From NCBI GenBank assembly GCA_040772725.1, contig JAXGXR010000002.1, positions 559,217 to 623,216 on the forward strand: a DNA stretch of 64,000 bases, given 5' to 3'. The notes under the pieces were generated by a model. That model was given only the letters and a program-made list of their open reading frames with translations. It was not told where the DNA came from and ran no database searches. The translations under genes and the position numbers were made by a program. Source of the stretch: Clostridia bacterium. GTDB lineage: Bacteria > Bacillota > Clostridia > Saccharofermentanales > UBA5734. Positions 37 to 16,368 of the stretch are shown piece by piece; within the stretch, counting starts at the first letter, position 1; each line of letters starts with the position of its first letter.

Positions 37-94
37 TGGCGGAGAGAGTGGGATTTGAACCCACGGTACGCTCACACGTACGCCGCATTTCGAG
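37..94 (-). pseudogene. 3' segment (anticodon loop through CCA) of a split host tRNA-Ser(CGA)
   Basis: rc reads CTCGAAATGCGGC..GTACG..CGTAC..GTGGGTTCAAATCCCAC TCTCTCC GCCA. It has a T-arm, a long variable arm and a 3' acceptor strand. It pairs perfectly with the 5' segment at 14664..14695 and ends abruptly at TTTCGAG (88..94). Confidence 0.85.
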
Positions 95-291
95 ACGTTC
101 ATTTCATTCATAAGATAATCACCTTTAGTCGACTTTAGTGGAAGATACCGGAACCTACAAACGCAGTATTATCAGGTGTCCTGGACGATAAAAACTCAAA
201 AAAGCCTCGAAACCCATGAGTTCGAATGGGTCCCGGAAATGCCCAATTTTAGGTCAAAAAGTTGATTTTTTTGCAGAAAAGAGAGAATTCA

Positions 292-366
292 GGAGAGAAC
301 TAATAGGAATTGAATCGCTTGAAAACAAATCCTTTCAGAGGATGAATTATTTTTTTAGGAGAGAAC
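292..366 (+). promoter_or_regulatory. Candidate integrase arm-type sites (2 x GGAGAGAAC) in the left arm
   Basis: GGAGAGAAC occurs at 292..300 and 358..366. The same 9-mer recurs in the right-end units at 14359, 14372 and, degenerate, at 14550 and 14563. Confidence 0.4.
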
Positions 367-444
367 AAGACACCAATTTAAGCCATTTCTCGAAAAAATG
401 GGCTTCACCTGCCGTTGACAGACAGAAAAGGAAGGGTGAAATCC

Positions 445-1020
445 ATGAAGAAAAAAAGCAAATATCAACTTCTCTATAAGCTGTATCCGCCTGTTATAAC
501 CAAGGATCAATTTTACAGAATCTGTAACATCAGCAAGAAAACTGCTGCCCATTTGCTGGACAACGGTCTGGTCCCCTGTGTGAACAGCGGCAAGAAAACA
601 AGGAAATACAAAATCAATTTGGAGGACGTCATCGAGTATTTGGAATCAAGAGAAAAAGATCCCGGACGATATGCTGCCCCATCCGGATGGTACAAGACCT
701 ATGGTAAACCTGATGAGAAGGATTTCTTGATGACACCTGCGAATATCCGAAAAATCAGTGCTCATTATCTAAAGAAGCTATCCAAGTATCCAGATGTTCT
801 TAGTGTCAATCAGTTGTCCAGCCTTACTGGGTATTCAACCACTACCCTACTTAAATGGATCAATAAGGGCGCAATTAAACACTTGGATATGGGAAATCGC
901 TATTTAGTACCAAAGGAATGGCTGCTCGACTTTCTGTCTGGTCCAGAATTCATGAAGGCACGCATTCCTTCTAAATATGGAGAAGAACAGATCAAGAAAA
1001 TTTTTAAAAGCAAGGAATAG
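445..1020 (+). CDS. Tandem helix-turn-helix (excisionase/MerR-like) DNA-binding protein
   Basis: RBS aaggaagggtg precedes ATG 445. Two HTH-like segments are present (ITKDQFYRICNISKKTAAHLLDNGLVP and LSVNQLSSLTGYSTTTLLKWINKGAIK). It is the first gene inside the left att junction. A hairpin plus T-run follows at about 1105..1135. Confidence 0.6.
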   Translation: MKKKSKYQLLYKLYPPVITKDQFYRICNISKKTAAHLLDNGLVPCVNSGKKTRKYKINLEDVIEYLESREKDPGRYAAPSGWYKTYGKPDEKDFLMTPANIRKISAHYLKKLSKYPDVLSVNQLSSLTGYSTTTLLKWINKGAIKHLDMGNRYLVPKEWLLDFLSGPEFMKARIPSKYGEEQIKKIFKSKE

Positions 1021-1183
1021 GAATACTCAAAGTGGTATATGCGAGAGGATGTCGGCATCAGAGCACTAAATAACGTCTACAATAACTGAGAAAAATCTCG
1101 ACATTAAACCGTCATATTCATGTTGTGACGGTTTATTCTTGAAGATTACTGCCCATACGCCGAAGAAAAAGTGTAAAACCTTC

Positions 1184-1238
1184 TTGACAGTGTGCGATTC
1201 TAGAATTATTATTAGTGTAAAGATATCTTTACACTAAT
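1184..1238 (+). promoter_or_regulatory. Promoter (TTGACA-N17-TATTAT) plus a 28-bp perfect palindromic operator
   Basis: ttgaca at 1184..1189, a 17-nt spacer, then tattat. ATTAGTGTAAAGAT|ATCTTTACACTAAT (1211..1238) is a perfect 14+14 palindrome that abuts the RBS of the XRE gene. Confidence 0.6.
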
Positions 1239-1244
1239 AGGAGC

Positions 1245-1466
1245 GTGTTGACTTTGCCAGTTCGAAACAGAATACAAGAAATACGGCTCGAACGAAAAAT
1301 TAGCCAAGTCAAGATGGCTGAGGATCTTAATGTGACCCGACAGACAATAAATGCCATTGAAAAAGAGCGTTATAATCCCAGTCTTGAGTTAACCCTAAAA
1401 ATCATCGAGTATTTTCAACTTCCGATTGAAGCAATATTTTATCTTGAGAAAGGTGATGCAGAATGA
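1245..1466 (+). CDS. XRE-family HTH transcriptional regulator
   Basis: The sequence RLERKISQVKMAEDLNVTRQTINAIEKERYNPSLELTLKI is a classic Cro/C1-type HTH. RBS aggag sits at 1239. Confidence 0.85.
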   Translation: MLTLPVRNRIQEIRLERKISQVKMAEDLNVTRQTINAIEKERYNPSLELTLKIIEYFQLPIEAIFYLEKGDAE

Positions 1467-1876
1467 ATAAAAAATATTCCATTTTACTATGGATCATAAT
1501 TTTTTTCGGAATGGCAGCAGGAGCCGTTTTGGCTGTTTACCTCGATGAAGGTTTGAACAAACAAGCTATTATAGTTTTTGCACTTCCTTTGTTGATCGGA
1601 GTCAGCGCCGCTGCCCTGGCTTCTCAGTTTGTTAGCAAATATAAGAGCATTGAGAACAGGAATGGAAAAGCAGCGTCTTATGATGAACGGACCGTATATA
1701 TGATGCAACGATACTCCATGATCATGCTGTACGTTTCTCAATTCATCCTGGCCGGCACAGTGTTAGCTCTTAAGATTATGAAAATTGAGTTTATCCCTGT
1801 AGATATTGCTTTACTAGGACTTTTCGGATTTATTGTGATTAATGGCCTTGGAATTATCATTATAAGGAGCAGATAG
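1463..1876 (+). CDS. Small multi-pass membrane protein paired with the XRE regulator (DUF2178-like)
   Basis: The start overlaps the XRE stop (ATGA). Four hydrophobic segments are present. The family assignment is from memory of the common XRE + membrane-protein pair. Confidence 0.55.
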   Translation: MNKKYSILLWIIIFFGMAAGAVLAVYLDEGLNKQAIIVFALPLLIGVSAAALASQFVSKYKSIENRNGKAASYDERTVYMMQRYSMIMLYVSQFILAGTVLALKIMKIEFIPVDIALLGLFGFIVINGLGIIIIRSR

Positions 1877-2027
1877 AAAAATCAAATCAAATGACCAAAT
1901 AAAGCTGTTTCTGTATTCAGATATAATTCTGGCTTTCAAAAAATCAAAATAACGCTGCCCGTTACTTTCAACGAAACGCCTTCCTCGCGAAGGTGTTTTT
2001 TGTTTCAACAAATATAAGGAGGTCGCT

Positions 2028-2369
2028 ATGAAAGAAACGTTTAATCATCGCTACAAGCAGGTCTGCCATCTGGCTGAAATGCAAGGCGAAGCCTTTGCCG
2101 AGGTAGTAACTGAATCCTTTGATGATCTGGATAGCCTGGGTGAGTTCGTCGATACCCTTTTCTACATGCATTCCATCACGGATGATGAGCAATTCGCTGT
2201 TTTCCTTGGGATGATGTACGAGATCATGGGCAGCCAGATGCCTGAAGAGATCGACTACCAAATTGTCATGGAACAGAGGCCCAGCATTTTTTACAGCTGC
2301 TTCCTGTCCTCATTCCTGACAGGAATTTTGAATCGGATCGGAGGTGATTTTCCTTGCCCTGTAATGTGA
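2028..2369 (+). CDS. Hypothetical protein (ICE-borne)
   Basis: RBS taaggagg precedes the ATG. An acidic 113-aa ORF with no family I recognise. Confidence 0.45.
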   Translation: MKETFNHRYKQVCHLAEMQGEAFAEVVTESFDDLDSLGEFVDTLFYMHSITDDEQFAVFLGMMYEIMGSQMPEEIDYQIVMEQRPSIFYSCFLSSFLTGILNRIGGDFPCPVM

Positions 2370-3175
2370 TCGCTATTGCCAATCAGAAAGGTGGAGTCGG
2401 CAAGACCACCACCTGCACCAATCTGGGCATCGGATTGGCCGCCGAAGGCAAGAAGGTTTTGCTTGTAGATTGTGATCCCCAGGGTAGCCTGACGATCAGC
2501 TTGGGGCATCCTCAGCCGGATCAACTACCGGTAACACTCTCCTCTATCTTAGGAAAAACCATGAATGACACAGCGCTTTCTCCACAGGAAGGCATCCTGC
2601 ATCATTGTGAAGGTGTGGATCTGATGCCCGCCAACATTGAGCTGTCCGGACTTGAGGTCTCGCTGGTCAATATTATGAGCCGGGAAAAGATCCTGAAACA
2701 GTATCATGATGATATTAAATCCAGCTACGAATACATCCTGCTCGACTGTATGCCTTCTCTCGGCATGCTGACGGTCAATACTCTGGCTGCCGCAGACAGT
2801 GTTCTAGTCCCTGTACAGGCTCAGTATCTGTCCGCCAAAGGCCTGGAGCAGCTACTTCAAACCATCAACAAAGTTCGCAAGCAAATCAATCCCAAGCTGA
2901 AGATCGACGGTATTTTGCTGACCATGGTAGATAACAGAACCAATGACGCCAAGGAAATCAGTGCTCTTTTGCGAGAAACCTACGGAACCAAGCTGACGGT
3001 GTTTGACTCGGTCATCCCCCACTCCGTCAGGGCGGCAGAGATTGCTTCCTATGGGAAAAGCATCTTCGCCCATGATCCCAAGGGTAAAGTGGCAGAAGCT
3101 TATAGAAATCTGACGAAGGAGGTGCTGAAGCTTGAAACCCAGCGGCAGAAATCTAAATCTGACCTCCTACGATGA
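2354..3175 (+). CDS. parA: ParA/Soj-family partition ATPase
   Basis: Deviant Walker A IAIANQKGGVGKTTT. Also LLVDCDPQGS. RBS ggagg lies 9 nt before TTG 2354. Confidence 0.9.
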   Translation: MPCNVIAIANQKGGVGKTTTCTNLGIGLAAEGKKVLLVDCDPQGSLTISLGHPQPDQLPVTLSSILGKTMNDTALSPQEGILHHCEGVDLMPANIELSGLEVSLVNIMSREKILKQYHDDIKSSYEYILLDCMPSLGMLTVNTLAAADSVLVPVQAQYLSAKGLEQLLQTINKVRKQINPKLKIDGILLTMVDNRTNDAKEISALLRETYGTKLTVFDSVIPHSVRAAEIASYGKSIFAHDPKGKVAEAYRNLTKEVLKLETQRQKSKSDLLR

Positions 3176-4058
3176 GATCTTTCAGACTGAAGAAACCAAG
3201 ATCGAAACATCCCAGGAGAAGGTCATCGATATTCCTTTGACAGATTTGCATCCGTTCAAAAATCACCCCTTCAAGGTGACAGATGACGAATCAATGCTGG
3301 AAACCGCCGAGAGCATCACCAAACACGGCGTCCTGGTGCCGGTCATTGCCCGTCCCCGTGAAGAAGGTGGATATGAGTTGATCTCCGGACACCGGCGCAA
3401 GCGTGCAAGTGAGCTGGCCGGTAAGGAGACTCTTCCTTGCATCGTCCGCAATCTCGACGATGACGCTGCCACCATCATCATGGTTGACAGCAATATTCAG
3501 CGTGAGAACATCCTGCCTAGTGAACGCGCCTTCGCCTATAAACTCAAACTGGAGGCGATAAAGCACCAAGGACGGAGGAACGATTTAACTTCTGACCAAG
3601 TTGAACACAAGTTAAAAGCTAGGGATGTTGTAGCAAAGGAAGCTGGAGAAAGCTCTGTTCAAGTCCAACGCTTTATCCGCCTGACAGAGCTCGTTCCTGA
3701 GCTGTTAGATATGGTCGATGCCAAGAATATCGCTTTCAATCCTGCTGTTGAGCTTTCCTACCTCATGCCTCATGAACAGGTCCAGCTGATGGAAGCCATG
3801 GACATGGAGCAGGCTACACCTTCCTTGTCTCAGGCTCAGCGCTTGAAGAAGTACAGTCAGGATGGCAAGCTGACCTTTGATGTTATGACCGCCATCATGT
3901 CTGAAGATAAAAAAGGTGAACTGGATAAAGTGACGCTCACCGGTGAGAAGCTCAAAAAGTATTTTCCTAAATCCTACACGCCCCAGCAGATGGAGGAAAC
4001 CATTATCAAACTGCTGGAAGGCTGGTCACGGAAGCGCCAGCAATCACAGGAACGGTAA
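3132..4058 (+). CDS. parB: ParB/Spo0J-family partition protein
   Basis: Motifs LISGHRRKRASELAG and IVRNLDDDAATIIMVDSNIQRE are present. RBS aaggaggtg is upstream. The gene overlaps the parA 3' end. Confidence 0.9.
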   Translation: MKPSGRNLNLTSYDEIFQTEETKIETSQEKVIDIPLTDLHPFKNHPFKVTDDESMLETAESITKHGVLVPVIARPREEGGYELISGHRRKRASELAGKETLPCIVRNLDDDAATIIMVDSNIQRENILPSERAFAYKLKLEAIKHQGRRNDLTSDQVEHKLKARDVVAKEAGESSVQVQRFIRLTELVPELLDMVDAKNIAFNPAVELSYLMPHEQVQLMEAMDMEQATPSLSQAQRLKKYSQDGKLTFDVMTAIMSEDKKGELDKVTLTGEKLKKYFPKSYTPQQMEETIIKLLEGWSRKRQQSQER

Positions 4059-4118
4059 TTCCCCTCCGAGGTGCTTCGATGAGAAGCGCTTTTTTTATTC
4101 AACCGGCCGAAGGGAGGG

Positions 4119-5303
4119 ATGCAAATGGCTGTATTTCGAGTTGAGAAAACGAGGGACTACACCGTTATGGCGAATCATCATCTGAAGAATAAGGATCTGT
4201 CACTGAAGTCCAAGGGGCTTCTATCTCAGATGTTATCACTCCCGGAAGACTGGGATTACACCCTCAAGGGGCTTTCTATGATCAACCGGGAGAGCATCGA
4301 TGCCATTCGGGAAGCGGTCCGTGAACTGGAACGGGCAGGATACATCGTCCGAACCAGAGAGAGAAATGAGTTTGGTCACCTTAAGGGTACGGATTACACG
4401 ATTTATGAAAAGCCTCACATGGCGGTAGACCACTCAGCAATCAGCGAGCCTATATCGGAGAAGCCAGTATTGGAAAGACCTATGTTGGAAAATCCAATCT
4501 TGGAGAATCCAGTGTTGGATAAACCTACGTTGGAAAATCCAACGCAATTAAATACTAAGAAAACAAATAAAGATCCATTAATGACTAAGGGATTAAGTAA
4601 ACATCCATCAATCCCTGATCCATCAAGAGAAGCCAAGATCGAGAAGGATGAGATTGGATTGGACGCTCATTCCATCAAGGAGGCCATCCAGGAGAAAATC
4701 GAATACAAGTTTATTGTTCAGCGTTATGACAAAGATCGTCTTGATGAAATCGTGGACCTGATGGTGGAGACTCTCTGTTCCAAGCGAGAATACATCACCG
4801 TTGCCGGGGATGATTATCCTGCATCATTGGTCAAGGAACGGCTGCAGCGCATCGACAGCACCCACATCGAATATGTCTTTGAATGCCTGGATAAAAACAC
4901 CACCTTCATTCGGAACATCAAGAAATACCTCCTGACGACGTTATTCAATGCACCATCCACCATCGACAGCTATTACACCGCTTCCTGGGGTGTTGATCCA
5001 ACTGAAAATACTGAGATTGCTGCTAAATACAGCAGGAAAGTATTCGATGCTGGCTACAATCCCATCTGTCCAATCCTGATGCTCTCAAACTTCATAGATG
5101 ACGGCATCCCCCAGGAACATAAGGACAGACAGGATATTGAGCTTGATTACCTGAGACGCTCCAATGTCCTGGTAGTATGCGGCTCTCGGATCGACGAAGC
5201 CGTGAAAAACGACATTGCCATTGCTGAGCGCTATCGAATTCCGGCAACTACTTTAAGCGGCATCCTGACCGTTAAAAGCCACGGTCAGAAGGCAACAAAA
5301 TAG
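4119..5303 (+). CDS. ICE replication-initiator-like protein (N-terminal wHTH, DUF6017-like middle) with an extra C-terminal domain
   Basis: The N-terminus FRVEKTRDYTVMANHHLKNKDLSLKSKGLLSQMLSLPEDWDY is typical of clostridial ICE Rep proteins. A peptide repeat PVLERPMLENPILENPVLDKPTLENPTQLNT follows. About 105 aa continue after DSYYTA. Confidence 0.7.
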   Translation: MQMAVFRVEKTRDYTVMANHHLKNKDLSLKSKGLLSQMLSLPEDWDYTLKGLSMINRESIDAIREAVRELERAGYIVRTRERNEFGHLKGTDYTIYEKPHMAVDHSAISEPISEKPVLERPMLENPILENPVLDKPTLENPTQLNTKKTNKDPLMTKGLSKHPSIPDPSREAKIEKDEIGLDAHSIKEAIQEKIEYKFIVQRYDKDRLDEIVDLMVETLCSKREYITVAGDDYPASLVKERLQRIDSTHIEYVFECLDKNTTFIRNIKKYLLTTLFNAPSTIDSYYTASWGVDPTENTEIAAKYSRKVFDAGYNPICPILMLSNFIDDGIPQEHKDRQDIELDYLRRSNVLVVCGSRIDEAVKNDIAIAERYRIPATTLSGILTVKSHGQKATK

Positions 5304-5457
5304 CTATGCGTATAGTCATTGTGACATCTCCGGCTCACCTGTGAAGAGCCTAATTGTAAGAATTTTAACCTATACCTTAATGGGTGTAATATAATACTTA
5401 TAAGTACGGAAGAATATGTTGCTATGAGAAAAATAATTTAGAAAGGAGAACTGAATA

Positions 5458-6084
5458 ATGAAAAAGAGAACGAAGCGACTTGTTGGTGTTATAGGATTTC
5501 TTCTCCTTACGGCACTTGCCTTCGTGTTCTATTTCTATATGACTTTTTCAGGTAACATCATTGAGCGATTCAGCCAGCAAAGAGCAATCATTAAGGCATA
5601 TGAAACAAGATATGATGAAGATTTTGAGATTGTAAGTTCAAGCTATGGTTATAAACGCAAGGAATTTTCATTCAGGATATCTTCAAAGAGTGAGCCTGAA
5701 ATAGTGTTCACTTCGACTCTGGATGAAGCGGACAGTATCGATCGATATGCGGCTGCCCGCAGTATAGATTATTTTCGTAAAGTCATATCTGAAGCATTTG
5801 GTAATGACTTTGATGATCTGCAATACAAAGTCAACATCTTTGAGGAGTACAATTCACCGGGTCTTCTCGAGCGTGACGTGACCACTCGCCTAAGCCAGAA
5901 CCAATATGTTGTTGATTTATCATGGGATCCGCCTGTCCTTGATACTTTGCAGGTTGATACCATTTTTAATGATATGACGCAACGGATCTCGGCGCGTCTG
6001 GATACATCCATTGGCGGGCTTAAGATCCGCGCTGGAGTGTATGACGGAAAAGATTACTATATCACTGAGGTTGATCTGAGGTAA
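5458..6084 (+). CDS. Hypothetical membrane-anchored or secreted protein (AT-rich cargo)
   Basis: RBS aaaggagaa is upstream. The N-terminal TM segment is LVGVIGFLLLTALAFVFYFYMTF. No recognisable family. Two hairpin/T-run terminators lie downstream (about 6124..6155 and 6203..6228). Confidence 0.5.
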   Translation: MKKRTKRLVGVIGFLLLTALAFVFYFYMTFSGNIIERFSQQRAIIKAYETRYDEDFEIVSSSYGYKRKEFSFRISSKSEPEIVFTSTLDEADSIDRYAAARSIDYFRKVISEAFGNDFDDLQYKVNIFEEYNSPGLLERDVTTRLSQNQYVVDLSWDPPVLDTLQVDTIFNDMTQRISARLDTSIGGLKIRAGVYDGKDYYITEVDLR

Positions 6085-6363
6085 TAATTAATGAGTAGGA
6101 CGGAAGGGCGAATGCATCTTAATGAACTGCCGTAACGAGGCCGGCAGTTCTTTTTTATCCTGACATAGTGAACACAGCTATAAAAAACATGATTGATATT
6201 CCAAACCACCTGAAAAGGTGGTTTTTTTAAATTAAATGGCATCCGGACCGTTAAAAACCACGGACAGTAGACCTCTAAATAGCATAATTCCTGATTATGC
6301 ACAAAACATTGGAAAAAAGGAATGTTTCGTGCAATTTCAAAAACAGAAAAGGAGAAGAAATCT

Positions 6364-6768
6364 ATGGACGTATTGATTGTTGAACCTGAAAAAGCGCCGC
6401 GTATGGCTAGTATCACCGGTGACCTGAACTCCCTGCAGCAGGTTGTCGGTGGCTACATCGAAGCCGTCTATCCCTATGATGACCCGGTTGCCATTGTCTG
6501 TCATGAAGAGGGCAAACTCATTGGCCCCCCCCTTAACCGAAAACTTGAGGACTACGACATTATCGCAGGAACCTTCATCGTCTGTGGGCTTGGCGAAGAG
6601 GATTTTGATTCCCTCACACCAGAACTGGCCGAGAAGTACCGCGAGAAATTTGCTGATCCTGAGATCTTCATGAAGATGGGCAGCAGAATCGTCGCCATCC
6701 CCATCAAACCCAAAGACGATCTGTATGTGGCCAAACCGAAACAGAAGTCCACGGAACCTGAACTTTAG
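6364..6768 (+). CDS. DUF3846 domain protein (common ICE/plasmid accessory gene)
   Basis: MDVLIVEPEKAPRMASITGDLNSLQQVVGGYIEAVYPYDDPVAIVCHEEGKL matches my memory of DUF3846 N-termini. Confidence 0.65.
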   Translation: MDVLIVEPEKAPRMASITGDLNSLQQVVGGYIEAVYPYDDPVAIVCHEEGKLIGPPLNRKLEDYDIIAGTFIVCGLGEEDFDSLTPELAEKYREKFADPEIFMKMGSRIVAIPIKPKDDLYVAKPKQKSTEPEL

Positions 6769-6886
6769 TTGCTTCAAAAATGAAGAAGCCTTCTCAAACG
6801 AAATAAATTTGAGGAGGCATTCTTTCATTAACAAGAATACTTAAACCATCCGCCTGATAAGTATTTTTGTAAAACTGACTTTCAAA

Positions 6887-7717
6887 TTAGAGACTTTTAA
6901 TCAATTCCCTGATAGCATCCAGGACATCTTCGTAAGTGATTCCATCCGCATACCTGTAATCCTTTGTGTACTTTAACCACCTGGATCTCAAGGCTTCACT
7001 ATCGCTGATTTCTTCCAGGCGTTTGCTTATGCTATTAAAAATGTGAGTCGTTTCCCTGTGTGTGGCCGTGGATCTCAAGGCTTCAACAAAAACGGAATAA
7101 TCAAAACTTTGGGTTTTCGTCAGGATATATACATCGTAAAAATCTCTGGGTCTTGTGTTCAACTCGCCTCGCCTCAAAATGGTTTCCACTTTTTCTGCTA
7201 AGACGGTCTCAATGTTATAAGCCCAAACACCAAAACTGCCTTCTTCAAAAATCATCTTGAACTCATATAGGATTTCCTTAGGAGTGATTGCATCCCCTGT
7301 AGTGATATCAATCTGCATGGGAGTCGTGATCGTATCGTATTCAGAAGTAATACTCACTCGATAGCCACCATAAGCATCATCGTCTCTAATGGCTTCGATT
7401 CCAGAAAACGAGAAAGACACGTCATCATCGATGACGATACTGCAGATATCATTAATAGCTTTGGTCAACGATTCAACATTGATGGGATAATTCTTGATCG
7501 TGGCATCCATGTCCATTGTTGCTCGGTTATCAATGCCGACAAGCGCTGCAATCAGCATTCCGCCTTTTAGGATGAATTTATCCTTGTACTTAGATTTAGA
7601 AAGCCTTTCTATGAACCGTTCAAACATGTAGTTTTGGAGTACGACCTGAGCGGACATATCCTTCTTCCTGGCCAAATTCCGAATTTTTGCCTTCAAGCTC
7701 ATGGCTTTTCCACTCAT
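6887..7717 (-). CDS. abiEii: AbiEii/AbiGii-family nucleotidyltransferase toxin (type IV TA / abortive infection)
   Basis: Contains QNYMFERFIERLSKSKYKDKFILKGGMLI...DMDATI (NTase fold motif). Overlaps the upstream antitoxin gene by 4 nt. Confidence 0.85.
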   Translation of the reverse strand: MSGKAMSLKAKIRNLARKKDMSAQVVLQNYMFERFIERLSKSKYKDKFILKGGMLIAALVGIDNRATMDMDATIKNYPINVESLTKAINDICSIVIDDDVSFSFSGIEAIRDDDAYGGYRVSITSEYDTITTPMQIDITTGDAITPKEILYEFKMIFEEGSFGVWAYNIETVLAEKVETILRRGELNTRPRDFYDVYILTKTQSFDYSVFVEALRSTATHRETTHIFNSISKRLEEISDSEALRSRWLKYTKDYRYADGITYEDVLDAIRELIKSL

Positions 7718-8316
7718 AGCAACACCTCCAGGTAATTTTTGAGTACAGCATCAATTCTGAGCTTTTTGGCATAATCCATGAGCATCGAGAGATCCGCTGA
7801 CTTCAATTTTACAAATCGTTTTAAGGCTTCATTCAGGATTTGGACGTCAATGCGATTTCTGCTTCTAATCAGGTCGCAGATTGTCCTTTCGATGTTGTAG
7901 GTCTTAATTGGATTGCCGTGCGAGCTTTGGACAGTTTCGACGCCAAGCTCATGAAGCTCCTTTTTGATGTAGTAGATTTTGAATCGTTCGGCCATTGACC
8001 CAACCACTTTATAACCGCTTGGTACAGAAGCTGAATACTCAAAGGGTGTCCGATCCGAAAGACCATGCAAATACAGAGCTGTTTCATGAGAATAGATCAG
8101 TTTCGGATACTTCGTTTGCATGGAATACATCTCATCTTCAATGGCATCGGTGGAAACATAAATACCACGATCAACTCTTTCCAGTTTCCCATCGGCTACC
8201 ATCATCTGAAGATAAGTTCTGGGAATTTCATATAAATCCAGATCGGCACTTAATACTGTGCCGTGTTGCTTCTGAATGAGTTTTTCAAGCTTTTCCAGGT
8301 AATTCATCATCATCAC
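7714..8316 (-). CDS. abiEi: AbiEi-family antitoxin / transcriptional autoregulator
   Basis: The N-terminal wHTH is HGTVLSADLDLYEIPRTYLQMMVADGKLERVDRGIYV. The gene is paired with abiEii. The true start is probably MNYLEKL (8304). Confidence 0.8.
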   Translation of the reverse strand: MMMMNYLEKLEKLIQKQHGTVLSADLDLYEIPRTYLQMMVADGKLERVDRGIYVSTDAIEDEMYSMQTKYPKLIYSHETALYLHGLSDRTPFEYSASVPSGYKVVGSMAERFKIYYIKKELHELGVETVQSSHGNPIKTYNIERTICDLIRSRNRIDVQILNEALKRFVKLKSADLSMLMDYAKKLRIDAVLKNYLEVLL

Positions 8317-8326
8317 CTCGCTTTAC

Positions 8327-8374
8327 AAGTATACTTATATTATAGTCCATTTAAGTATATTTGTAAATATACTT
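8327..8374. promoter_or_regulatory. Candidate AbiEi operator palindromes in the abiE promoter
   Basis: AAGTATACTT (8327..8336) is a perfect palindrome. AAGTATATTT-GT-AAATATACTT (8353..8374) is a 10-2-10 palindrome. Both lie directly upstream of the abiEi start. Confidence 0.5.
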
Positions 8375-8486
8375 TTCAATACAATGCACAACGTTTAAGG
8401 CCAACTTGATTGTTGCTGACCTAAGTTGTAGATAGCACAAACTGAGGTTTATAAAAATTTAGTACCACGTTAAGGAGGAATTTTTC

Positions 8487-8966
8487 ATGCAGGAAGAAGT
8501 GGAAAACAGGACCGTTGCCCTGGCTGTCAGTACCACCCGAATGACCGGTCGTGTTCTGAAGGCCGCACTCATCAAGCTCTTGGCTGAAATGAAGAAGAGC
8601 CGGGACAGTCCGCCACAGATCCCCCACGGCAAGCAGACCGTAAAAGAGCTCATCGGTCAGAATGCCGGAGTCTCCAACATTGAGATTACGGACAAGAACA
8701 TCAAGTCCTTTGAGCAGGTCGCCAGAAAATACGGCGTAGACTATGCCCTCAAGAAGGATACCGCCGGGGAGAAGCCTAAATATCTGGTCTTCTTCAAGGC
8801 CCGGGACGCCGATGCCCTCACCGCAGCCTTCACAGAATATACGGCGAAGGTCCTCAAAAAGGACAAGCAGCCTTCCATCCTGGAACAGCTTGCCAAATTT
8901 AAGGCTCTGGTTCAGACCAAGGTCATGGACCGGGTGAAAAACAAAGACAAGGAGCTGACGCGATGA
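8487..8966 (+). CDS. PcfB-family (DUF3801) conjugation protein
   Basis: Contains VALAVSTTRMTGRVLKAAL...KYGVDYALKKD...YLVFFKARDADALTAAF. RBS aaggagg is upstream. Confidence 0.75.
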   Translation: MQEEVENRTVALAVSTTRMTGRVLKAALIKLLAEMKKSRDSPPQIPHGKQTVKELIGQNAGVSNIEITDKNIKSFEQVARKYGVDYALKKDTAGEKPKYLVFFKARDADALTAAFTEYTAKVLKKDKQPSILEQLAKFKALVQTKVMDRVKNKDKELTR

Positions 8967-10738
8967 TAGGAAAAATCAAGCGGATGCTCCTTTTAAACCT
9001 TCCCTATGTTCTCATAGCGCTAGGTACGACCAAGATTGGTGAAGCCTGGCGCTTTTCTGTTGGAGTAGATATTTCTCAGAAGGTACTGCACCTGATGGAC
9101 GGCTTTGCTTTATCTTTCCAATCCCCATGGCCGAGCCTGCTCCCGCAGGACCTGATACTGGGCATTGTGATTGCTGGTGGAATTAAGCTGGCAGTCTATG
9201 TGAAAGGCAGGAACGCCAAAAGATACCGCAAAAACATCGAATACGGCTCAGCCCGCTGGGGCAGACCTGAGGACATCAAGCCCTTTATTGATCCCACCTT
9301 TCGCAATAACATCATCCTTACGGAGACGGAGCGCCTGACCATGAACAACCGCCCTAGGGACCCAAGGCTCGCACGCAACAAAAACGTCATGGTGGTGGGA
9401 GGTTCCGGATCTGGTAAGACGCGGTTTTGGCTGAAGCCAAATCTTATGCAGTGCCATTCCAGCTATGTGGTCACCGATCCCAAGGGCAGCGTCGTGGTGG
9501 AATGCGGACAGCTTCTCGTTCGGGAAGGCTATAAGATCAAGATCCTCAATACCATCAACTTCAGCAAATCCATGCACTACAACCCCTTTGCCTACATCAG
9601 GAGTGAAAAGGACATCCTCAAGCTGGTGACGGCCCTCATCGCCAACACCAAGGGTGAAGGCAAAGCTGGAGACGATTTCTGGGTGAAGGCGGAGACTCTG
9701 CTATATACCGCGCTCATGGGCTACATCCATTATGAAGCACCGGAAAGCGAGCGGAACTTCACGACCCTCATCGAGCTCATCAATGCCTCAGAAGTCCGGG
9801 AGGACGACGAGGACTTTCAGAACCCGGTGGATCTGATGTTCGCCGCTCTGGAGGAACATGACTCGGAGCATTTTGCAGTCCGGCAGTACAAGAAATACAA
9901 GCTGGCAGCCGGAAAGACCGCCAAATCCATCCTCATCAGCTGCGGGGCCCGTCTGGCATCCTTTGATATCAAAGAGCTCAGAGATCTGACGGCCTATGAC
10001 GAAATGGAACTGGATGCCCTAGGTGACCGGAAAACGGCGCTGTTCATCATCATCAGCGACACTGATGACACCTTCAACTTCCTGGTTTCCATGGCGTACA
10101 CGCAGCTCTTCAATCTGCTGTGCGACAAGGCAGATGACGTCTATGGCGGACGTCTGCCTGTGCATGTGCGCTGTCTCATTGATGAGGCGGCGAATATCGG
10201 TCAAATTCCCAAACTGGAAAAGCTCGTGGCCACCATCCGAAGCCGGGAGATCTCGGCCTGTCTGGTACTGCAGGCCCAATCCCAGCTGAAGGCTCTTTAT
10301 AAAGATCACTGCGATACCATCATCGGCAATATGGACAGCACGATCTTTCTGGGCGGCAAGGAGCGCACCACATTAAAGGAGCTTTCAGAAACCCTTGGGA
10401 AGGAGACCATCGACACCTTCAATACCGGGGAAAGCCGAGGCCGTGAAGTTTCCCACAGTCTGAACTACCAGAAACTCGGAAAGGAGCTGATGAGCATCGA
10501 CGAACTGGCCGTGCTGGACGGCGGCAAGTGCATTCTGCAGCTGCGCGGGGTACGGCCTTTTCTCTCCAACAAGTACGACATCACCAAACACCCCAACTAC
10601 AAGTACCTCTCCGATGCGGACCCGCGAAACGCCTTCAACATCGAGAAGTACCTGTCCACCCGTCTCAAGCCCAAACCGGATGAAATCTATGAGGTCTACC
10701 ACATGGATCTGTCCAACCAACCCGAAGCCGCCGAATGA
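8963..10738 (+). CDS. Type IV coupling protein (VirD4/TraG family, CD1115-type)
   Basis: Has N-terminal TM segments. Walker A is VVGGSGSGKTRF. Walker B-like is HVRCLIDEAANIG. A terminator hairpin plus T-run lies at about 10725..10750. Confidence 0.9.
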   Translation: MIGKIKRMLLLNLPYVLIALGTTKIGEAWRFSVGVDISQKVLHLMDGFALSFQSPWPSLLPQDLILGIVIAGGIKLAVYVKGRNAKRYRKNIEYGSARWGRPEDIKPFIDPTFRNNIILTETERLTMNNRPRDPRLARNKNVMVVGGSGSGKTRFWLKPNLMQCHSSYVVTDPKGSVVVECGQLLVREGYKIKILNTINFSKSMHYNPFAYIRSEKDILKLVTALIANTKGEGKAGDDFWVKAETLLYTALMGYIHYEAPESERNFTTLIELINASEVREDDEDFQNPVDLMFAALEEHDSEHFAVRQYKKYKLAAGKTAKSILISCGARLASFDIKELRDLTAYDEMELDALGDRKTALFIIISDTDDTFNFLVSMAYTQLFNLLCDKADDVYGGRLPVHVRCLIDEAANIGQIPKLEKLVATIRSREISACLVLQAQSQLKALYKDHCDTIIGNMDSTIFLGGKERTTLKELSETLGKETIDTFNTGESRGREVSHSLNYQKLGKELMSIDELAVLDGGKCILQLRGVRPFLSNKYDITKHPNYKYLSDADPRNAFNIEKYLSTRLKPKPDEIYEVYHMDLSNQPEAAE

Positions 10739-10784
10739 GCGGCTTTTTTCATCTCAAAAATCAAAAATAATTGGAGGTAATTTA

Positions 10785-11000
10785 ATGGAATTCTTTAACA
10801 GTGCAGTAGATGTACTACAGACTCTCGTCGTCGCTCTCGGTGCGGGCCTTGCCATCTGGGGCGTCATCAACCTTCTCGAAGGCTACGGTAACGATAACCC
10901 CGGTGCCAAGTCCCAGGGCATGAAGCAGCTTATGGCAGGCGGCGGTGTGGCCCTTATCGGTATCGTGCTGGTGCCGCTGCTCTCCGGTCTCTTCGGTTAA
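10785..11000 (+). CDS. Maff2-family small membrane protein
   Basis: MEFFNSAVDVLQTLVVALGAGLAIWGVINLLEGYGNDNPGAKSQGMKQLMAGGG. RBS ggagg lies 8 nt upstream. Confidence 0.75.
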   Translation: MEFFNSAVDVLQTLVVALGAGLAIWGVINLLEGYGNDNPGAKSQGMKQLMAGGGVALIGIVLVPLLSGLFG

Positions 11001-11014
11001 TCGGGTAGAACGCG

Positions 11015-11403
11015 ATGGATAGCATACTCGACAAAATCACCGAATGGCTGAAGACGATGCTTGTAGAAGGCATCATCACAAATTTGTCGGGGATGTTTGA
11101 TAACGTCAATCAGCAGGTTGGCGAAATCGCAGGTGAAGTGGGACTGACGCCGGCGGCATGGAATGCCGGCGTCTTTTCCATGATCCGCAGCCTCTCCGAA
11201 AGTGTCATCATCCCCATCGCGGGTGTGATCCTTGCCTTTGTGATGACCTACGAGCTCATCCAAATGGTCATCGACCGGAATAATCTTCATGACATCGACA
11301 CCTGGATCTTCTTCAAATGGATCTTTAAAACCTTTGTGGCCGTTCTTCTGGTCACCCATACCTTTGATATCGTCATGGGCATCTTCGATATGGCGCAGTC
11401 GGT
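11015..11403 (+). pseudogene. VirB6/TrbL-like conjugal transfer protein (CD1112-type), 3'-truncated by IS21
   Basis: The N-terminal ~130 aa (MDSILDKITEWLKTMLVEGI...TFVAVLLVTHTFDIVMGIFDMAQSVV) run straight into the IS21 left end. The ORF tail SAKLEIPEAIK is IS-encoded. Confidence 0.75.
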
Positions 11404-11594
11404 TGTGTCTGCTAAACTAGAAATACCAGAAGCGATCAAGTAAAAATCCCAGAATCGATCACTTGGAATTCCCTGGAAAAATCAAGGACTAAAAGGAGGG
11501 ACAGTTGAACAACTGTCCCCTGAATCATTATCCTTTGTTGTGAGCGCGACCACACAGCAGAGGAGGAATAGGAGAGATGCTCAACGTGTCTTAA

Positions 11595-13043
11595 GTGAAT
11601 CATATCAGGGATTTGGCCCAAAGTGGGAAATGTCCGGCACAAATCAGCCGCGAAACCGGACGGGATATCAAGACCGTCAACAAGTACCTGGAGGACAGGG
11701 ACTATTCGCCAAGGCCACTGAAGGTTATAAGGAAGCCGTCAAAGCTCGACCCCTACAAGGAGACGATTGACAAATGGCTGGAGTCGGACCAGACACGTTG
11801 GCACAAGCAGCGCCATACGGCCAAGCGCGTCTACGACCGGCTCAGGGAACGCCATCCCGAATTCGACTGCTCCTACCCGACCGTGGGGCGCTACGTGCGC
11901 GAGAAGAACGATGCCCTGAAAGCGGGCAAGGCGTTCCAGGAACTGGTCTGGCATCCCGGCGAGGCGCAGGTCGACTTTGGCGAGGCGGACTTTGTCGAGC
12001 GCCAGGCGATGGTGCGGAAGAAGTATCTGACGGTGTCGTTTCCCTACAGCAATGACAGCTTCACGCAGGTGTTCGGCGGCGAGACGGCCGAGTGCGTCTG
12101 CCAGGGACTGAAGGATATTTTTGCCTACATCGGCGGCGTACCGGGGATTTTGGTATTCGACAACGCCACCGGCGTCGGGCGACGGGTTGGGGAAATAATC
12201 CGCGAGGCGAAACTGTTCGGGCAGTTTCGGGCCCACTACGGATTTCTGCTCCGGTTCTGCAACCCGAACGCCGGCCACGAGAAGGGCAATGTGGAAAACA
12301 AGGTCGGCTTCACGCGCCGGAACCTGTTCGTGCCGCCGCTTGCCTATGACGACATCGAAGTTTTCAACCAACAACTTCTGGATCGGCATCAGGATAAGTC
12401 GGAGGAACCGCACTACAAGAAGCTCTTGCCGATCAAGGAGTTGTTCAAGGAAGACCGGCAGGCGTTAAGGCCGCTGCCGTCGCACCCGTTCAACGTCTGC
12501 CGCTACGAGACCGTCCATGCCGACAACTACGGCAAGGTCTGCCTCGACGAGCGCCACCGCTATGCCACCTGCCCCGAGTATGGCGGCAAAAAGGTCATGG
12601 TGGGGCTTCGGGCGCACACGGTCGAGATCCTAGCGGACGACCTGTCGGTCCTGACGGTCTATGACCGGATGTTCGGCGCCGAACGCACCGACACGACCGA
12701 CTACCGCACGACGCTGGCGACACTTCTCAAAAATGTCGGCGCCTGGAGAAACAGCGGCATCCGGGAAAAACTGCCGGACCCATTGCGCCAGGCGTTGGAT
12801 GCGCAGCCGAAAGAAGCGTTGCGCCAGTCGCTTCGGGCGCTCGAGCAGCTGAGCCAAACCTACGATTTTGAGACGGCGGTCGCTGCGCTCGAAGAGGGCT
12901 TGCGCCTGGACCGCACGCGGCTGTCGGACACGGCGGTGCTGGCGGCCCGGATTCGCGGCTACGGCCTGATGCGGGCGCCGGAGAAGGGCCCGGACCTTAG
13001 AGTCTATGACCGGTTGTTGAAGGGAGACGGAGCATGCTCATGA
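11595..13043 (+). CDS. istA: IS21-family transposase IstA
   Basis: The N-terminal HTH is IRDLAQSGKCPAQISRETGRDIKTVNKYL. The DDE core region includes WHPGEAQVDFGEA...LVFDNATG...GHEKGNVENKV. Confidence 0.9.
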   Translation: MNHIRDLAQSGKCPAQISRETGRDIKTVNKYLEDRDYSPRPLKVIRKPSKLDPYKETIDKWLESDQTRWHKQRHTAKRVYDRLRERHPEFDCSYPTVGRYVREKNDALKAGKAFQELVWHPGEAQVDFGEADFVERQAMVRKKYLTVSFPYSNDSFTQVFGGETAECVCQGLKDIFAYIGGVPGILVFDNATGVGRRVGEIIREAKLFGQFRAHYGFLLRFCNPNAGHEKGNVENKVGFTRRNLFVPPLAYDDIEVFNQQLLDRHQDKSEEPHYKKLLPIKELFKEDRQALRPLPSHPFNVCRYETVHADNYGKVCLDERHRYATCPEYGGKKVMVGLRAHTVEILADDLSVLTVYDRMFGAERTDTTDYRTTLATLLKNVGAWRNSGIREKLPDPLRQALDAQPKEALRQSLRALEQLSQTYDFETAVAALEEGLRLDRTRLSDTAVLAARIRGYGLMRAPEKGPDLRVYDRLLKGDGACS

Positions 13044-13843
13044 CGCAAAGGACACGTGACGATGCCCGGGGCGCCATCGCCGCCTGCTGCAAGACGCTTT
13101 ACCTCTCGAAGAACGTCCTGCGCCTGTGCGAGGACGAGGCCACCCCCAAGCAGGAGGAGTTTTTGCTCAGGGTCCTCGAGCAGGAGCTTCAGCAACGCGA
13201 AAAGAATCGGATCGCCAGGCTCCTGAACCGCGCTGGCTTTCCGACGCTCAAGGGTTTTTCCGACTACGACTTCACCAACGTGCGCTTCCCGCCGACGCTT
13301 TCCAGGGACGAGCTTTTGACGGCTGGGTTTATTTCGGAGCAGAAGAACCTGGTGCTTTACGGCCCGGTCGGCACTGGAAAAACCCACCTGGCGATCGCCC
13401 TGGGCTTGAAAGCATGCGAGATGGGGCTCCGGGTCCGCTTCTATTCGGTCACAGCCCTGGTCCTGAAGCTGGGCGAGGCCTTTAAGGACGGCACGCTGGA
13501 AAAACTCGTGCGCGACCTTCTGAACCTGGACCTGCTGATCCTCGATGAATGGGGCTATGTCCCGGTCGACAAGGAAGGCTCGCAGCTTCTGTTCCGCGTC
13601 GTCGCCGACAGCTACGAGCAGAAGAGCCTCATCCTGACCACCAACCTCGAGTTCTCCAAATGGGGTTCGATCTTTACTGATGAGCAGATGGCCGCTGCCA
13701 TGATTGACCGCCTGGTGCACCATGGCCATCTCCTGATCTTCGACGGCGAAAGCTACCGCATGAAGCATGCGCTGATGCGACAGACGCAACGGCCGCCTGC
13801 CGACAAGGGGGTGAGAATGGCTGCCTCAATGGCCGATGATTAA
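13034..13843 (+). CDS. istB: IS21-family helper ATPase IstB
   Basis: Walker A is LVLYGPVGTGKTHLAIALG. Walker B is LLILDEWGY. The gene overlaps the istA stop. Confidence 0.9.
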   Translation: MLMTQRTRDDARGAIAACCKTLYLSKNVLRLCEDEATPKQEEFLLRVLEQELQQREKNRIARLLNRAGFPTLKGFSDYDFTNVRFPPTLSRDELLTAGFISEQKNLVLYGPVGTGKTHLAIALGLKACEMGLRVRFYSVTALVLKLGEAFKDGTLEKLVRDLLNLDLLILDEWGYVPVDKEGSQLLFRVVADSYEQKSLILTTNLEFSKWGSIFTDEQMAAAMIDRLVHHGHLLIFDGESYRMKHALMRQTQRPPADKGVRMAASMADD

Positions 13844-13920
13844 AACAGGGAATTCCCAGTGATTACGAATGGGATTTTTTGTTGATCATTTATGGGAAAA
13901 GCTGTTGACAAAACACACAC

Positions 13921-14139
13921 GATCTTCGACATAGCTGCGCTAGCTTACTACTGGCAAACAACGTTCCGATGAAACAGATCCAGGACTGGTTAGGCCATAG
14001 TGATTTTTCAACGACGGCCAATATCTACGCTCACTTGGATTACAATTCAAAGCTTTCGTCGGCTCAAGCTATGATTGAAGGATTAAATTTTGTCAGTATC
14101 GGAGAAAGCAGATCGAATAATGAGTCATGTACGGATTAG
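13921..14139 (+). pseudogene. Tyrosine recombinase/integrase, C-terminal 72 codons only (5' part removed at the IS21 end)
   Basis: The frame starting at 13921 reads DLRHSCASLLLANNVPMKQIQDWLGHSDFSTTANIYAHLDY. This covers the box II R-H...H..Y catalytic region. It begins exactly at the IS21 right end and its stop is at 14137..14139. Confidence 0.8.
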
Positions 14140-14174
14140 AATAGTAAAAAAACAAGTCTTTCCTGCACACAAGC

Positions 14175-14219
14175 AGAAAAAAGCGGTTCCCCTCAAACTG
14201 AGGAAAACCGCGGGTTTTC
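14175..14219. terminator. Bidirectional hairpin terminator (integrase stub / element tRNA-Ser)
   Basis: Stem GCGGTT..CCTC / GAGG..AACCGC (14183..14211). It is flanked by an A-run on the left and a T-run on the right. Confidence 0.6.
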
Positions 14220-14313
14220 TGGCGGAGAAGGAGGGATTTGAACCCTCGCGACGGCTCTAAACCGTCCTACTGCATTTCGAGTGCAGACCCTTCAGCCACT
14301 TGGGTACTTCTCC
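14220..14313 (-). tRNA. tRNA-Ser (anticodon CGA), complete, element-borne
   Basis: rc = GGAGAAGTACCCAAGTGGCTGAAGGGTCTGCA CTCGAAA TGCAG..variable arm..GAGGGTTCAAATCCCTC CTTCTCC GCCA. The acceptor stem GGAGAAG/CTTCTCC pairs. The anticodon stem CTGCA/TGCAG pairs. The loop CU-CGA-AA gives anticodon CGA. Length is 94 nt. Confidence 0.9.
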
Positions 14314-14358
14314 GTGTTATATCTCCAAACATCAGGTCTCATATATCCCTCAGAAAAA

Positions 14359-14571
14359 GGAGAGAACTGATGGAGAGAACTTGGGGTATTAAGTTGTCAA
14401 GGCGACTCAGCAAAGCGAGTCATATCAATGGTTTGAAGTTTTAGGCTTCCAGATATCTCATTCGGTTTCGAGTGCAGACCCTTCAGCCACTTGGGTACTT
14501 CTCCGTGTAATATTTCCAAACATCAGGTCTCAGAAACTCTTCGGAAAAAGTAGAGAACTGATGTAGAGAAC
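14359..14571 (+). promoter_or_regulatory. Candidate integrase arm-type sites in the right-end units
   Basis: GGAGAGAAC at 14359 and 14372. GTAGAGAAC at 14550 and 14563. Each pair is spaced 13 bp and has the same orientation as the left-arm copies. Confidence 0.4.
14473..14504 (-). pseudogene. Orphan 5' half of an element-type tRNA-Ser(CGA)
   Basis: Identical to the 5' 32 nt of the intact tRNA at 14220..14313. After the TTTCGAG core it is followed by non-tRNA arm sequence. Confidence 0.8.
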
Positions 14572-14663
14572 GTAGGGTATTCAGTTTTCAAGGCGACTCG
14601 GCAAAGCAAGTCAGATCAGTAGATCGGTGTTCACGGCTTCCCAAACTCTTGTTCGCTTTCGAG

Positions 14664-14695
14664 TGCGGTGCCTTCGGCCACTCAGCCATCTCTCC
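14664..14695 (-). pseudogene. 5' half of the split host tRNA-Ser(CGA)
   Basis: rc = GGAGAGATGGCTGAGTGGCCGAAGGCACCGCA. Its acceptor and anticodon-stem strands complement the 3' segment at 37..94. Confidence 0.85.
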
Positions 14696-14750
14696 AATTG
14701 TCGGATTTGAATGCTAAAACCGCGAAAATCCTGCCGTTGAAAGCCTCTCG

Positions 14751-14779
14751 ATTATAAAATAGGCGGTTGGCCACGTCAA
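14751..14779 (-). promoter_or_regulatory. Consensus sigma-70-type promoter of the (now split) host tRNA-Ser
   Basis: The minus strand reads TTGACG-N17-TATAAT (rc of 14774..14779 and 14751..14756). The -10 element lies ~55 nt upstream of the tRNA 5' end at 14695. Confidence 0.7.
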
Positions 14780-16366: not shown

Positions 16367-16368
16367 CC

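Follow-up and report, generated by a model that had tools for sequence, protein, structure and literature searches.

A tRNA-Ser(CGA) gene split at its anticodon loop and a complete substitute tRNA in a probable composite of conjugative element remnants from a Clostridia bacterium

The split host tRNA gene and the ends of the insert

The left part of a 64,000-nucleotide (nt) stretch of DNA from a Clostridia bacterium (Saccharofermentanales; UBA5734; assembly GCA_040772725.1, contig JAXGXR010000002.1, positions 559,217-623,216 of the forward strand), referred to as the window, contains an insert that is bounded by the two halves of a tRNA-Ser(CGA) gene of the host and carries a second, complete tRNA-Ser(CGA) gene close to its right end (Table 1). 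In the following, the host gene is termed H and its orphan halves H5 and H3, the complete cargo gene is termed E, and the arms of the mobile elements are termed X and Y; related loci and contigs are designated by an L and a number. We consider it probable that the interval comprises the remains of two related conjugative elements and belongs to a family that splits tRNA-Ser(CGA) at the anticodon loop and substitutes a complete tRNA for it.

The reverse complements of positions 14664..14695 and 37..94 join to a 90-nt class II tRNA-Ser(CGA), in which ARAGORN finds the acceptor, D, anticodon, variable and T stems fully paired. The heptamer TTTCGAG, which corresponds to the 7-nt anticodon loop, is found at 88-94 and 14657-14663 and is the only sequence common to both junctions. 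No tRNA is regenerated at either of them, as both ARAGORN and the Rfam tRNA model (RF00005, threshold 29 bits) are blank for the sequence starting at position 95 and for the sequence ending at position 14656. The original prediction, made from the sequence of the window, had claimed a 90-nt tRNA split into two halves, a break at the anticodon loop, junctions that restore nothing and a sequence-distinct, complete tRNA-Ser(CGA) with its own terminator at 14220..14313; all four claims hold. The latter gene is recognized by ARAGORN and Rfam and is followed by a terminator hairpin, and its sequence differs from that of the split host gene throughout the acceptor, D, anticodon and variable arms. ARAGORN calls two tRNA genes in the whole window, namely this tRNA-Ser(CGA) (14220-14313, minus strand) and a tRNA-Gln at 46293-46366.

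Read in tRNA sense, the locus starts with a host promoter-like site, which is followed by H5, the loop, Y1, an orphan 5' half of the E type, a further copy of the loop, Y2, the complete E tRNA and its terminator, and continues with an integrase stub, an insertion sequence of the IS21 family, a conjugative backbone, the X arm, the loop and the 3' half of H. The host promoter-like site is thereby directed toward all segments from H5 to the cargo tRNA, including Y1, the orphan E half and Y2. The right end contains two tandem 191-nt units (14275-14465 and 14466-14656), which are 83% identical overall. The nonamer GKAGAGAAC is found six times in the 64 kb, always on the plus strand and always at the ends of the insert, with two copies each in X, Y2 and Y1, while 0.63 copies would be expected by chance; these may represent arm-type integrase sites.

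Uninterrupted versions of the host gene can be found in related organisms. Five metagenome contigs contain a tRNA that is identical to the joined halves at 88-89 of 90 positions and that is intact according to ARAGORN and Rfam (55.5-57.1 bits); the uninterrupted genes of L149, L125, L143 and L150 differ from the joined halves at one or two positions. The original prediction had proposed to compare the locus with relatives lacking the insert. This comparison revealed that, in L125, L143 and L150, which derive from related organisms, an uninterrupted tRNA (88/90 identical to the joined halves) is present at the same locus, beside homologs of the right flank of the window (15086-19255). The homologs correspond to 15086-16366, 16369-18006 and 18053-19255 (Peptidase_M29), and their order and orientation beside the tRNA are kept. 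The same right-flank gene order is found at the occupied loci L092, L086 and L003, and the left-flank terminator of L125 resembles positions 1-36 of the window. Most of the 70 contigs that were returned when metagenome contigs were scanned for the uninterrupted H junction carry soil tRNAs, which are only 75-80/90 identical to the joined halves.

The 3' halves of both tRNA-Ser genes are also matched on their antisense strand by the Rfam model RF04351 (Plastid-psbl-rps4 3'UTR), at 40-91 and 14223-14272 (plus strand), with 43.1 and 28.4 bits compared to a threshold of 68. This model seems to capture antisense 3' halves of tRNA-Ser and nothing that is specific to the window.

Table 1. Features of the insert and its borders, with positions in the window (att, attachment site; HTH, helix-turn-helix; IS, insertion sequence).
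Feature	Position	Strand	Evidence and remarks
H3, orphan 3' part of host tRNA-Ser(CGA)	37..87	-	anticodon-stem 3' strand, variable arm, T arm, acceptor 3' strand, CCA
Loop copy at left junction (attR core)	88..94	-	TTTCGAG on plus strand, CTCGAAA in tRNA sense
X arm, element 1	95..414	+	non-tRNA, no tRNA call; GGAGAGAAC at 292-300 and 358-366
Excisionase-family DNA-binding protein	415..1020	+	two HTH_17 domains; Pfam HTH_17 4.9e-15; NCBIfam TIGR01764 44 bits (cutoff 28.8)
Conjugative backbone, element 1	2354..10738	+	Pfam matches
ParA	2354-3175	+	backbone, Pfam
ParB	3132-4058	+	backbone, Pfam
DUF6017	4119-5303	+	backbone, Pfam
DUF3846	6322-6768	+	backbone, Pfam
AbiEii/AbiEi type IV toxin-antitoxin (abortive infection) pair	6887-8316	-	element cargo
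DUF3801	8487-8966	+	backbone, Pfam
VirD4/TraG coupling protein	8963-10738	+	Pfam 5.8e-53
VirB6/TrbL_2-like conjugation gene, cut by IS21	11015..11405	+	Pfam TrbL_2, profile positions 1-103 of 174
IS21-family insertion sequence	~11406..13910	+	NCBIfam IS21 transposase 234 bits; IstB_IS21 4.9e-67
istA	11595-13043	+
istB	13034-13843	+
Tyrosine integrase stub, element 2	13918..14136	+	last 73 codons; HDLRH and IYAHL motifs kept
Intrinsic terminator of cargo tRNA	14183..14211	-	13-pair hairpin, then T run
Cargo tRNA-Ser(CGA), E, complete	14220..14313	-	ARAGORN; Rfam 56.5 bits; also in L088 and L112
Y2 arm, element 2	14314..14465	-	GGAGAGAAC at 14359-14367 and 14372-14380; 99.1% to L112; blocks conserved in 106 distinct copies
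Third loop copy (14466-14472) and orphan E-type 5' half (14473-14504)	14466..14504	-	100% identical to 14275-14313
Y1 arm, element 1	14505..14656	-	GTAGAGAAC at 14550-14558 and 14563-14571
Loop copy (attL core, 14657-14663) and H5, orphan 5' half of host tRNA-Ser(CGA) (14664-14695)	14657..14695	-
Host-tRNA promoter-like site	14751..14779	-	TTGACG-17-TATAAT; consensus match 11/12

Related loci across Clostridia

The paired Y-arm motif was used to scan one genome per species, and at least 119 stretches of DNA matched; all family figures given below refer to the matches listed among these. Nearly all of them belong to Clostridia, including Oscillospiraceae, Lachnospiraceae/Acetatifactor, Proteiniclasticum, Sedimentibacter, Eubacterium and others, and several are cultured isolates. 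An intact tRNA-Ser(CGA), which ends at most 80 nt from the motif and has the orientation seen in the window, is present in 84 of the 99 loci with enough left flank. The right flank is long enough in 116 loci, of which 107 contain TTTCGAG 100-130 nt beyond the motif. A recognizable orphan tRNA 5' half is located next to this loop in 91 of the 107 loci. The orphan half is mostly unlike the neighboring intact tRNA, and its identity to cargo 5' halves ranges from 36 to 100%. One identical full-length cargo tRNA is found in up to nine genomes, where it lies beside up to six different orphan halves, which argues that the tRNA moves with the element and that the orphan belongs to the host. The structural claim of the original prediction, namely that the gene is split at the loop and not restored and that a complete substitute is carried, thus stands for the window as well as for the family.

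In total, 35 distinct cargo sequences are present in the family. An alignment of 23 of these revealed double compensatory changes in 19 of 25 predicted pairs, and the acceptor and anticodon pairs are all intact; judged by this pattern, the cargo tRNAs look functional. Orphan halves of the E type are found in L003, L052, L020, L084, L114 and L091. In L003, a metagenome-assembled genome of the Clostridiaceae (1-231 and 1569-7152 of the oriented copy), the right-flank gene order of the window is found at around 65-71% DNA identity, and a Y1-type arm lies beside an E-like orphan 5' half, which has one mismatch to the cargo tRNA of the window. This orphan half indicates that some related hosts have a tRNA of the cargo type as their native tRNA-Ser(CGA).

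A homolog of the integrase of around 400 amino acids adjoins the tRNA in 60 loci, and full-length relatives contain the Pfam domains Phage_integrase and SAM_3. Solved relatives of the full-length integrase include 3nkh and the Int entries 6emy, 6en0 and 6emz, which we take to be the Tn1549 integrase. In L112 and L074, the order integrase, tRNA, Y, loop, X (around 300 nt) and HTH_17 gene corresponds to an attP-type junction of a circular form or of a tandem, and it agrees with the junction predicted from the two ends of the window; the topology of the X end (loop, around 300 nt, HTH_17 gene) hence recurs in both loci.

The second complete example of a split gene is L115, in which an orphan 3' half (750-805) and an orphan 5' half, located after the loop at 2541, assemble to a perfect 89-nt tRNA-Ser(CGA). 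The two halves flank an integrase-less element of 1.74 kb with its own, different cargo tRNA, and no tRNA is regenerated. This mini element (799-2547 of the oriented copy) is bounded by two loop copies and contains two small open reading frames (ORFs), which encode a membrane protein with an XRE-type HTH domain and a lipoprotein-like protein, as well as the cargo tRNA and the Y arm; it could be mobilized in trans by a related integrase. L031 was considered as another complete example and was rejected, since its orphan 3' and 5' halves do not pair and the locus is a composite. In L031, around 560 nt between two loop copies (within 4134-4790 of the oriented copy) consist of an X arm, a cargo tRNA and a Y arm.

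Several loci contain more than one unit. In L073 (216-1040 of the oriented copy), an intact tRNA-Ser(CGA) is followed by four units of loop and orphan 5' half with a spacing of around 181-190 nt, and at least three different sequence types are found among the orphan units. This stack points to repeated invasions or to alternative excisions in which a unit remained in place. Two copies of the motif, around 180-193 nt apart, are present in L009, L028, L034, L052, L058 and L077. A few matches come from bins outside Clostridia. L086 (Anaerolineaceae bin) and L039 (Sumerlaeota bin) show the full architecture, which could be due to contaminated bins or to real transfer. Next to the Y arm of L086 lies an H-like 5' half, and the loop in front of it reads TTCATAA (tRNA sense) instead of CTCGAAA. 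In L089 and L113, the tRNA is absent, and both appear to be chance matches of the motif. In a viral collection, no match was found for the uninterrupted H junction, the X1-loop junction or the Y motif, which argues against a phage.

Decay of the insert, integration model and alternatives

The insert encodes a type IV coupling protein (VirD4/TraG) and a mating-pore gene, the truncated TrbL_2/VirB6, and no relaxase, VirB4-type ATPase or intact integrase was found among the scanned ORFs of 95-14656. The original prediction had placed an integrase stub beside the cargo tRNA. Indeed, the 73 C-terminal residues of a tyrosine integrase are located there, which are 97% identical to residues 325-397 of the full-length Int protein of L088 (tblastn). 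No other Int match is found in the window, from which the first ~324 codons of the integrase are absent. With the integrase reduced to 73 codons, the insert is unable to move itself, and the copy in the window is a remnant of an integrative conjugative element. The product of the excisionase-family gene at the other end is a candidate directionality factor. The IS21-family element has the ends TGTC.../...GACA with matching sub-terminal blocks, and the VirB6/TrbL_2 reading frame enters its end at ~11406. It lacks a target-site duplication: the flanks read CGGTTG and AAACAC, and the two sides are the VirB6 fragment and integrase codon ~325. The insertion sequence therefore marks a deletion junction, which was generated by a deletion or by recombination between insertion sequences.

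Sequence identities at the right end point to two different sources. The segment with the integrase stub, E and Y2 (13918-14473) is 99.1% identical to L112 and only ~80% identical to L092, whereas the segment with the E 5' half, Y1 and the 5' half of H (14466-14696) is 98.7% identical to L092, in which this E 5' half belongs to a cargo tRNA that is intact and lies next to the same host half. The two ends thus come from different lineages, and the claim of a single element in the original prediction has to be replaced by a decayed composite of two related conjugative elements.

In the proposed mechanism, a Tn916-like tyrosine integrase would recombine the attachment site of the element, which consists of the X arm, CTCGAAA and the Y arm, with the host tRNA-Ser(CGA) gene. 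Since the 7-nt anticodon loop is the only sequence that attachment site and target have in common, the target would be split and not rebuilt. Each element would bring along a complete tRNA-Ser(CGA) with a terminator, located ~150 nt inside its integrase-proximal end and in the orientation of the target, so that integration would place the cargo tRNA directly behind the promoter and the orphan 5' half of the host tRNA. For the window, three steps are envisaged. Element 1, with the X1 arm, the backbone (95-11405) and the Y1 arm, would have entered the host tRNA. Element 2, with the Y2 arm, the cargo tRNA and the integrase, would then have integrated into the cargo tRNA of element 1, whose loop would have served as target; this event would leave the extra orphan 5' half at 14466-14504. 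Finally, an IS21-associated deletion, reaching from the VirB6 gene of element 1 to integrase codon ~324 of element 2, would have removed most of both elements. The order H5, Y1, E5, Y2, E and integrase argues that the second integration took place in the cargo tRNA and not at either outer junction, and this nested history is deduced from the order, the orientation and the identities of the segments. In L031, L115, L076 and L027, one or two copies of GGAGAGAAC are also present on the 3' side, 85-105 nt from the cargo tRNA. The motif is then found on both sides of the cargo-tRNA loop at lambda-like distances, which may explain how this loop acts as a secondary integration site.

Why a whole gene is carried may be understood from the diversity of the target. 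The sequences of tRNA-Ser(CGA) vary widely among Clostridia, and the acceptor stem of E and H chimeras contains G.U wobbles and A.C mismatches. A 3' half taken along from elsewhere would hence mismatch the 5' half of a divergent host, so that a whole gene together with a loop-only crossover would favor a wide host range; this is the likeliest reason for the whole-gene cargo. Such an element would be able to enter any host with this tRNA, and the decoder would not be lost.

The foreign tRNA presumably stands in for the host gene in the bacterium analyzed here. No terminator-like site is found between the host promoter (14751) and position 14314. Among distinct family members, a terminator-like site is present in 7 of 68 Y arms compared to 65 of 71 regions downstream of the cargo tRNA. 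Furthermore, TTGATT-17-TATCAT is found at a fixed position in 56 of 106 distinct Y arms of the family. The intact host promoter, the lack of an intervening terminator and the small number of Y arms with terminators make read-through from the host promoter the likeliest route of cargo tRNA expression at this locus. The term 'in trans' complementation, as used in the original prediction, is therefore misleading: the substitute has the orientation of the orphan 5' half and is located 150-340 nt downstream of it, behind the host promoter.

Several points weigh against this interpretation of the locus. The loci were chosen through the Y-arm motif, and the frequencies given above consequently describe Y-bearing loci and not all relatives of the integrase; moreover, every family member is known here from its sequence. 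An empty site from the same species was not found, and the exact flanks of the window are absent from all 70 metagenome contigs; the window itself includes only 36 nt of the left flank. The nested history is unprovable, since the deletion includes the far junction (X2, loop, E 3' half) that would be diagnostic. The match of the integrase N-terminus to an arm-binding domain (Arm-DNA-bind_4) is weak (E=0.12), and the exact GKAGAGAAC motif is missing from most X arms, while the pair is conserved in Y arms. In addition, a promoter scan of Y1 and Y2 in the window did not find the sigma-70-like site of about half of the family members, so that the cargo tRNA would have to be expressed at this locus by read-through or from an unrecognized promoter.

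It has also been proposed that the element addicts its host by tRNA replacement, that is, it destroys the sole UCG-specific tRNA and supplies the only copy, thereby making its loss costly to the host. The target is indeed inactivated and an intact substitute is carried, and the cargo tRNA was spared by a deletion whose end is ~80 nt away from the tRNA terminator. Likewise, nearly all of the 18 loci with at least 1.7 kb of left flank and no adjacent integrase keep an intact tRNA-Ser(CGA); however, plain functional replacement would account equally well for the tRNA being kept in integrase-less remnants. An element that left by precise excision at the loop would give the host its intact gene back, so that normal loss of the element would cost nothing and a penalty would arise only upon imprecise deletion; dependence would develop only after decay, as in the window, where the insert has no integrase left to excise it, and would further require that no other tRNA reads UCG. 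Conversion of serU, the single-copy tRNA-Ser(CGA) gene of E. coli, to the supD suppressor is possible because UCG codons are also decoded by the UGA isoacceptor. If Clostridia resemble E. coli, the CGA isoacceptor would be dispensable. The 64-kb window contains one tRNA-Ser and one tRNA-Gln, and other UCG decoders may lie elsewhere in the genome. Addiction is therefore regarded as unlikely.

Even less probable is a one-off capture, in which the complete tRNA was taken once by imprecise excision from an earlier host and is carried as an incidental passenger by this copy alone. The E-like orphans show that E-like tRNAs are native targets in other hosts, and the cargo gene probably originated by capture. 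However, a cargo tRNA is found at the same position and in the same orientation in 84 of the 99 assessable loci, the 35 distinct cargo sequences keep their stems by compensatory changes, and 65 of 71 have their own terminator. Capture may thus explain the origin of the cargo gene, which is now a conserved module.

A conventional island, in which 14220-14313 would be the regenerated target and the other pieces displaced fragments from tandem insertions, would account for the integrase stub beside an intact tRNA, and the anticodon loop is a known sublocation of the crossover. We consider this explanation very improbable, because the 5' half of the intact tRNA differs from that of the host (74% identity over loop and half), Y1 and not a 3' half adjoins the host 5' half, and the same full-length tRNA travels among genomes with different orphan halves; moreover, conventional tandem insertion stacks 3' fragments, whereas 5' halves are stacked here. 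An assembly artefact, in which a chimeric join or a spurious second 191-nt unit arose from tRNA-like repeats, has a similarly slight chance: short repeats (39-191 nt) could confuse short-read assemblers and many of the related loci are metagenome-assembled, but the 191-nt units are only 83% identical, which argues against erroneous collapse or duplication, the two junctions of the window are mutually consistent, and the same architecture is found in more than 100 independent assemblies, including the isolates Acetatifactor muris DSM 23669 (L072), Eubacterium sp. OM08-24 (L027), Mordavella massiliensis An582 (L070) and Proteiniclasticum sediminis BAD-10 (L091).

Relation to known systems and further features of the insert

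Integration into tRNA and transfer-messenger RNA (tmRNA) genes was reportedly divided into sublocation classes by Williams in 2002, with the anticodon loop among the known sublocations. Conventional tRNA-targeting islands by definition restore the split gene with a partial copy (Islander, PMC4383910). The locus described here resembles islands of tyrosine integrases in that the integrase lies beside a tRNA, the crossover is located in the anticodon loop, tRNA fragments are found at the termini and elements accrete in tandem. It differs from them in that the identity is limited to 7 nt, nothing is regenerated in the window, in L115 or in the 91 loci with orphan 5' halves, and a complete, independent tRNA gene is carried.

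The closest likeness with regard to the cargo is found in phages. The vTRX32-1 phage group of Rhizobium leguminosarum integrates into tRNA-Leu via a 12-bp core and carries a complete cargo tRNA-Leu (PMC8631192). This cargo tRNA lacks the core, and the authors suggested that it replaces the interrupted gene and protects against super-integration (PMC8631192). Both systems thus combine a short core inside a tRNA gene with a complete cargo tRNA of the same isotype; however, the former are phages, whereas conjugative genes are present in the insert described here, whose cargo keeps CTCGAAA and was apparently hit by a second element. As the core is the anticodon loop itself, a cargo tRNA necessarily keeps it.

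Many AT-rich sites, with coupling sequences that are not identical, serve as targets of Tn916-type elements. The insert shares with Tn916 and Tn1549 a related integrase, an excisionase-family HTH_17 protein, a Firmicutes-type VirD4/TraG, TrbL_2/VirB6 and DUF3801, but the members of its family target a specific 7-nt site of a single tRNA gene and bring a tRNA with them. In streptococci, integrative conjugative elements (ICEs) undergo site-specific accretion at one att site, and cis-mobilizable elements (CIMEs) are integrase-less and att-bounded. The remnant in the window, L115 and L031 are likewise integrase-less and att-bounded, and related elements are stacked at one att site; unlike in streptococcal accretion, integration may also take place inside the resident element, at the cargo tRNA, and lead to arrays of Y arms and orphan 5' halves. 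At the tRNA-Cys gene of Anabaena variabilis, 5'- and 3'-restoring elements each duplicate one part of the tRNA, and the gene is restored by fusion (bioRxiv 10.64898/2025.12.09.693284). Orphan 5' and 3' fragments also flank the stacked elements there, and the anticodon loop was proposed as att site; in contrast, no fusion restores the gene at the locus studied here.

In the literature searched, which covers few subscription journals, no description of this element family in Clostridia was found; the family is apparently undescribed so far, while the complete replacement tRNA has a phage precedent. It is a plausible, evenly balanced proposition that the 7-nt loop of tRNA-Ser(CGA) is a near-universal landing pad in Clostridia, that the whole-gene cargo drives horizontal replacement of this tRNA and that the stack of orphans records past invasions. 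Decay of an element would leave the host decoding with a foreign tRNA, and the cargo tRNA would become the next landing pad, so that successive invasions would stack units of Y arm and orphan 5' half upstream of it. One extra orphan half is found in the window and four successive ones in L073.

If so, the tRNA-Ser(CGA) genes of gut and digester Clostridia may be horizontally replaced. A loop-only crossover with a self-contained tRNA would further suggest a route to a broad host range, because no half supplied by the element needs to match that of the host. Textbooks and tools such as Islander assume restoration by a partial copy and map the ends of islands on this basis; members of this family would therefore be mis-delimited or missed. 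For genome annotation, orphan tRNA halves and arrays at this locus can be read as scars of such elements. Several family members are found in cultured isolates, to which Colidextribacter sp. OB.20 (L100) also belongs, and this makes these ideas testable.

Some further observations concern the composition of the window. The GC content of the insert is 37-53% over most of its length compared to 58-60% in the right flank; a quick look at a low-GC zone at 41-50 kb, near the tRNA-Gln, showed nothing island-like. Exact-protein look-ups matched a gene of the host flank only on a 1.7-kb contig and returned no record for the first gene of the element. Two repeats are located in the conjugative backbone. 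The DUF6017 gene contains, at 4449-4538, four overlapping copies of a 45-nt repeat with a 15-nt period, which encode a pentapeptide-like run (…EKPVLERPMLENPILENPVLDKPTLENP…). Furthermore, a 52-nt direct repeat (81% identical) with the hairpin GACCGT…ACGGTC is present at 5253-5304 and 6232-6283, of which the left copy runs across the DUF6017 gene end and the right copy is located ~150 nt downstream of the following plus-strand ORF; this repeat could represent a terminator or a transfer-related site.

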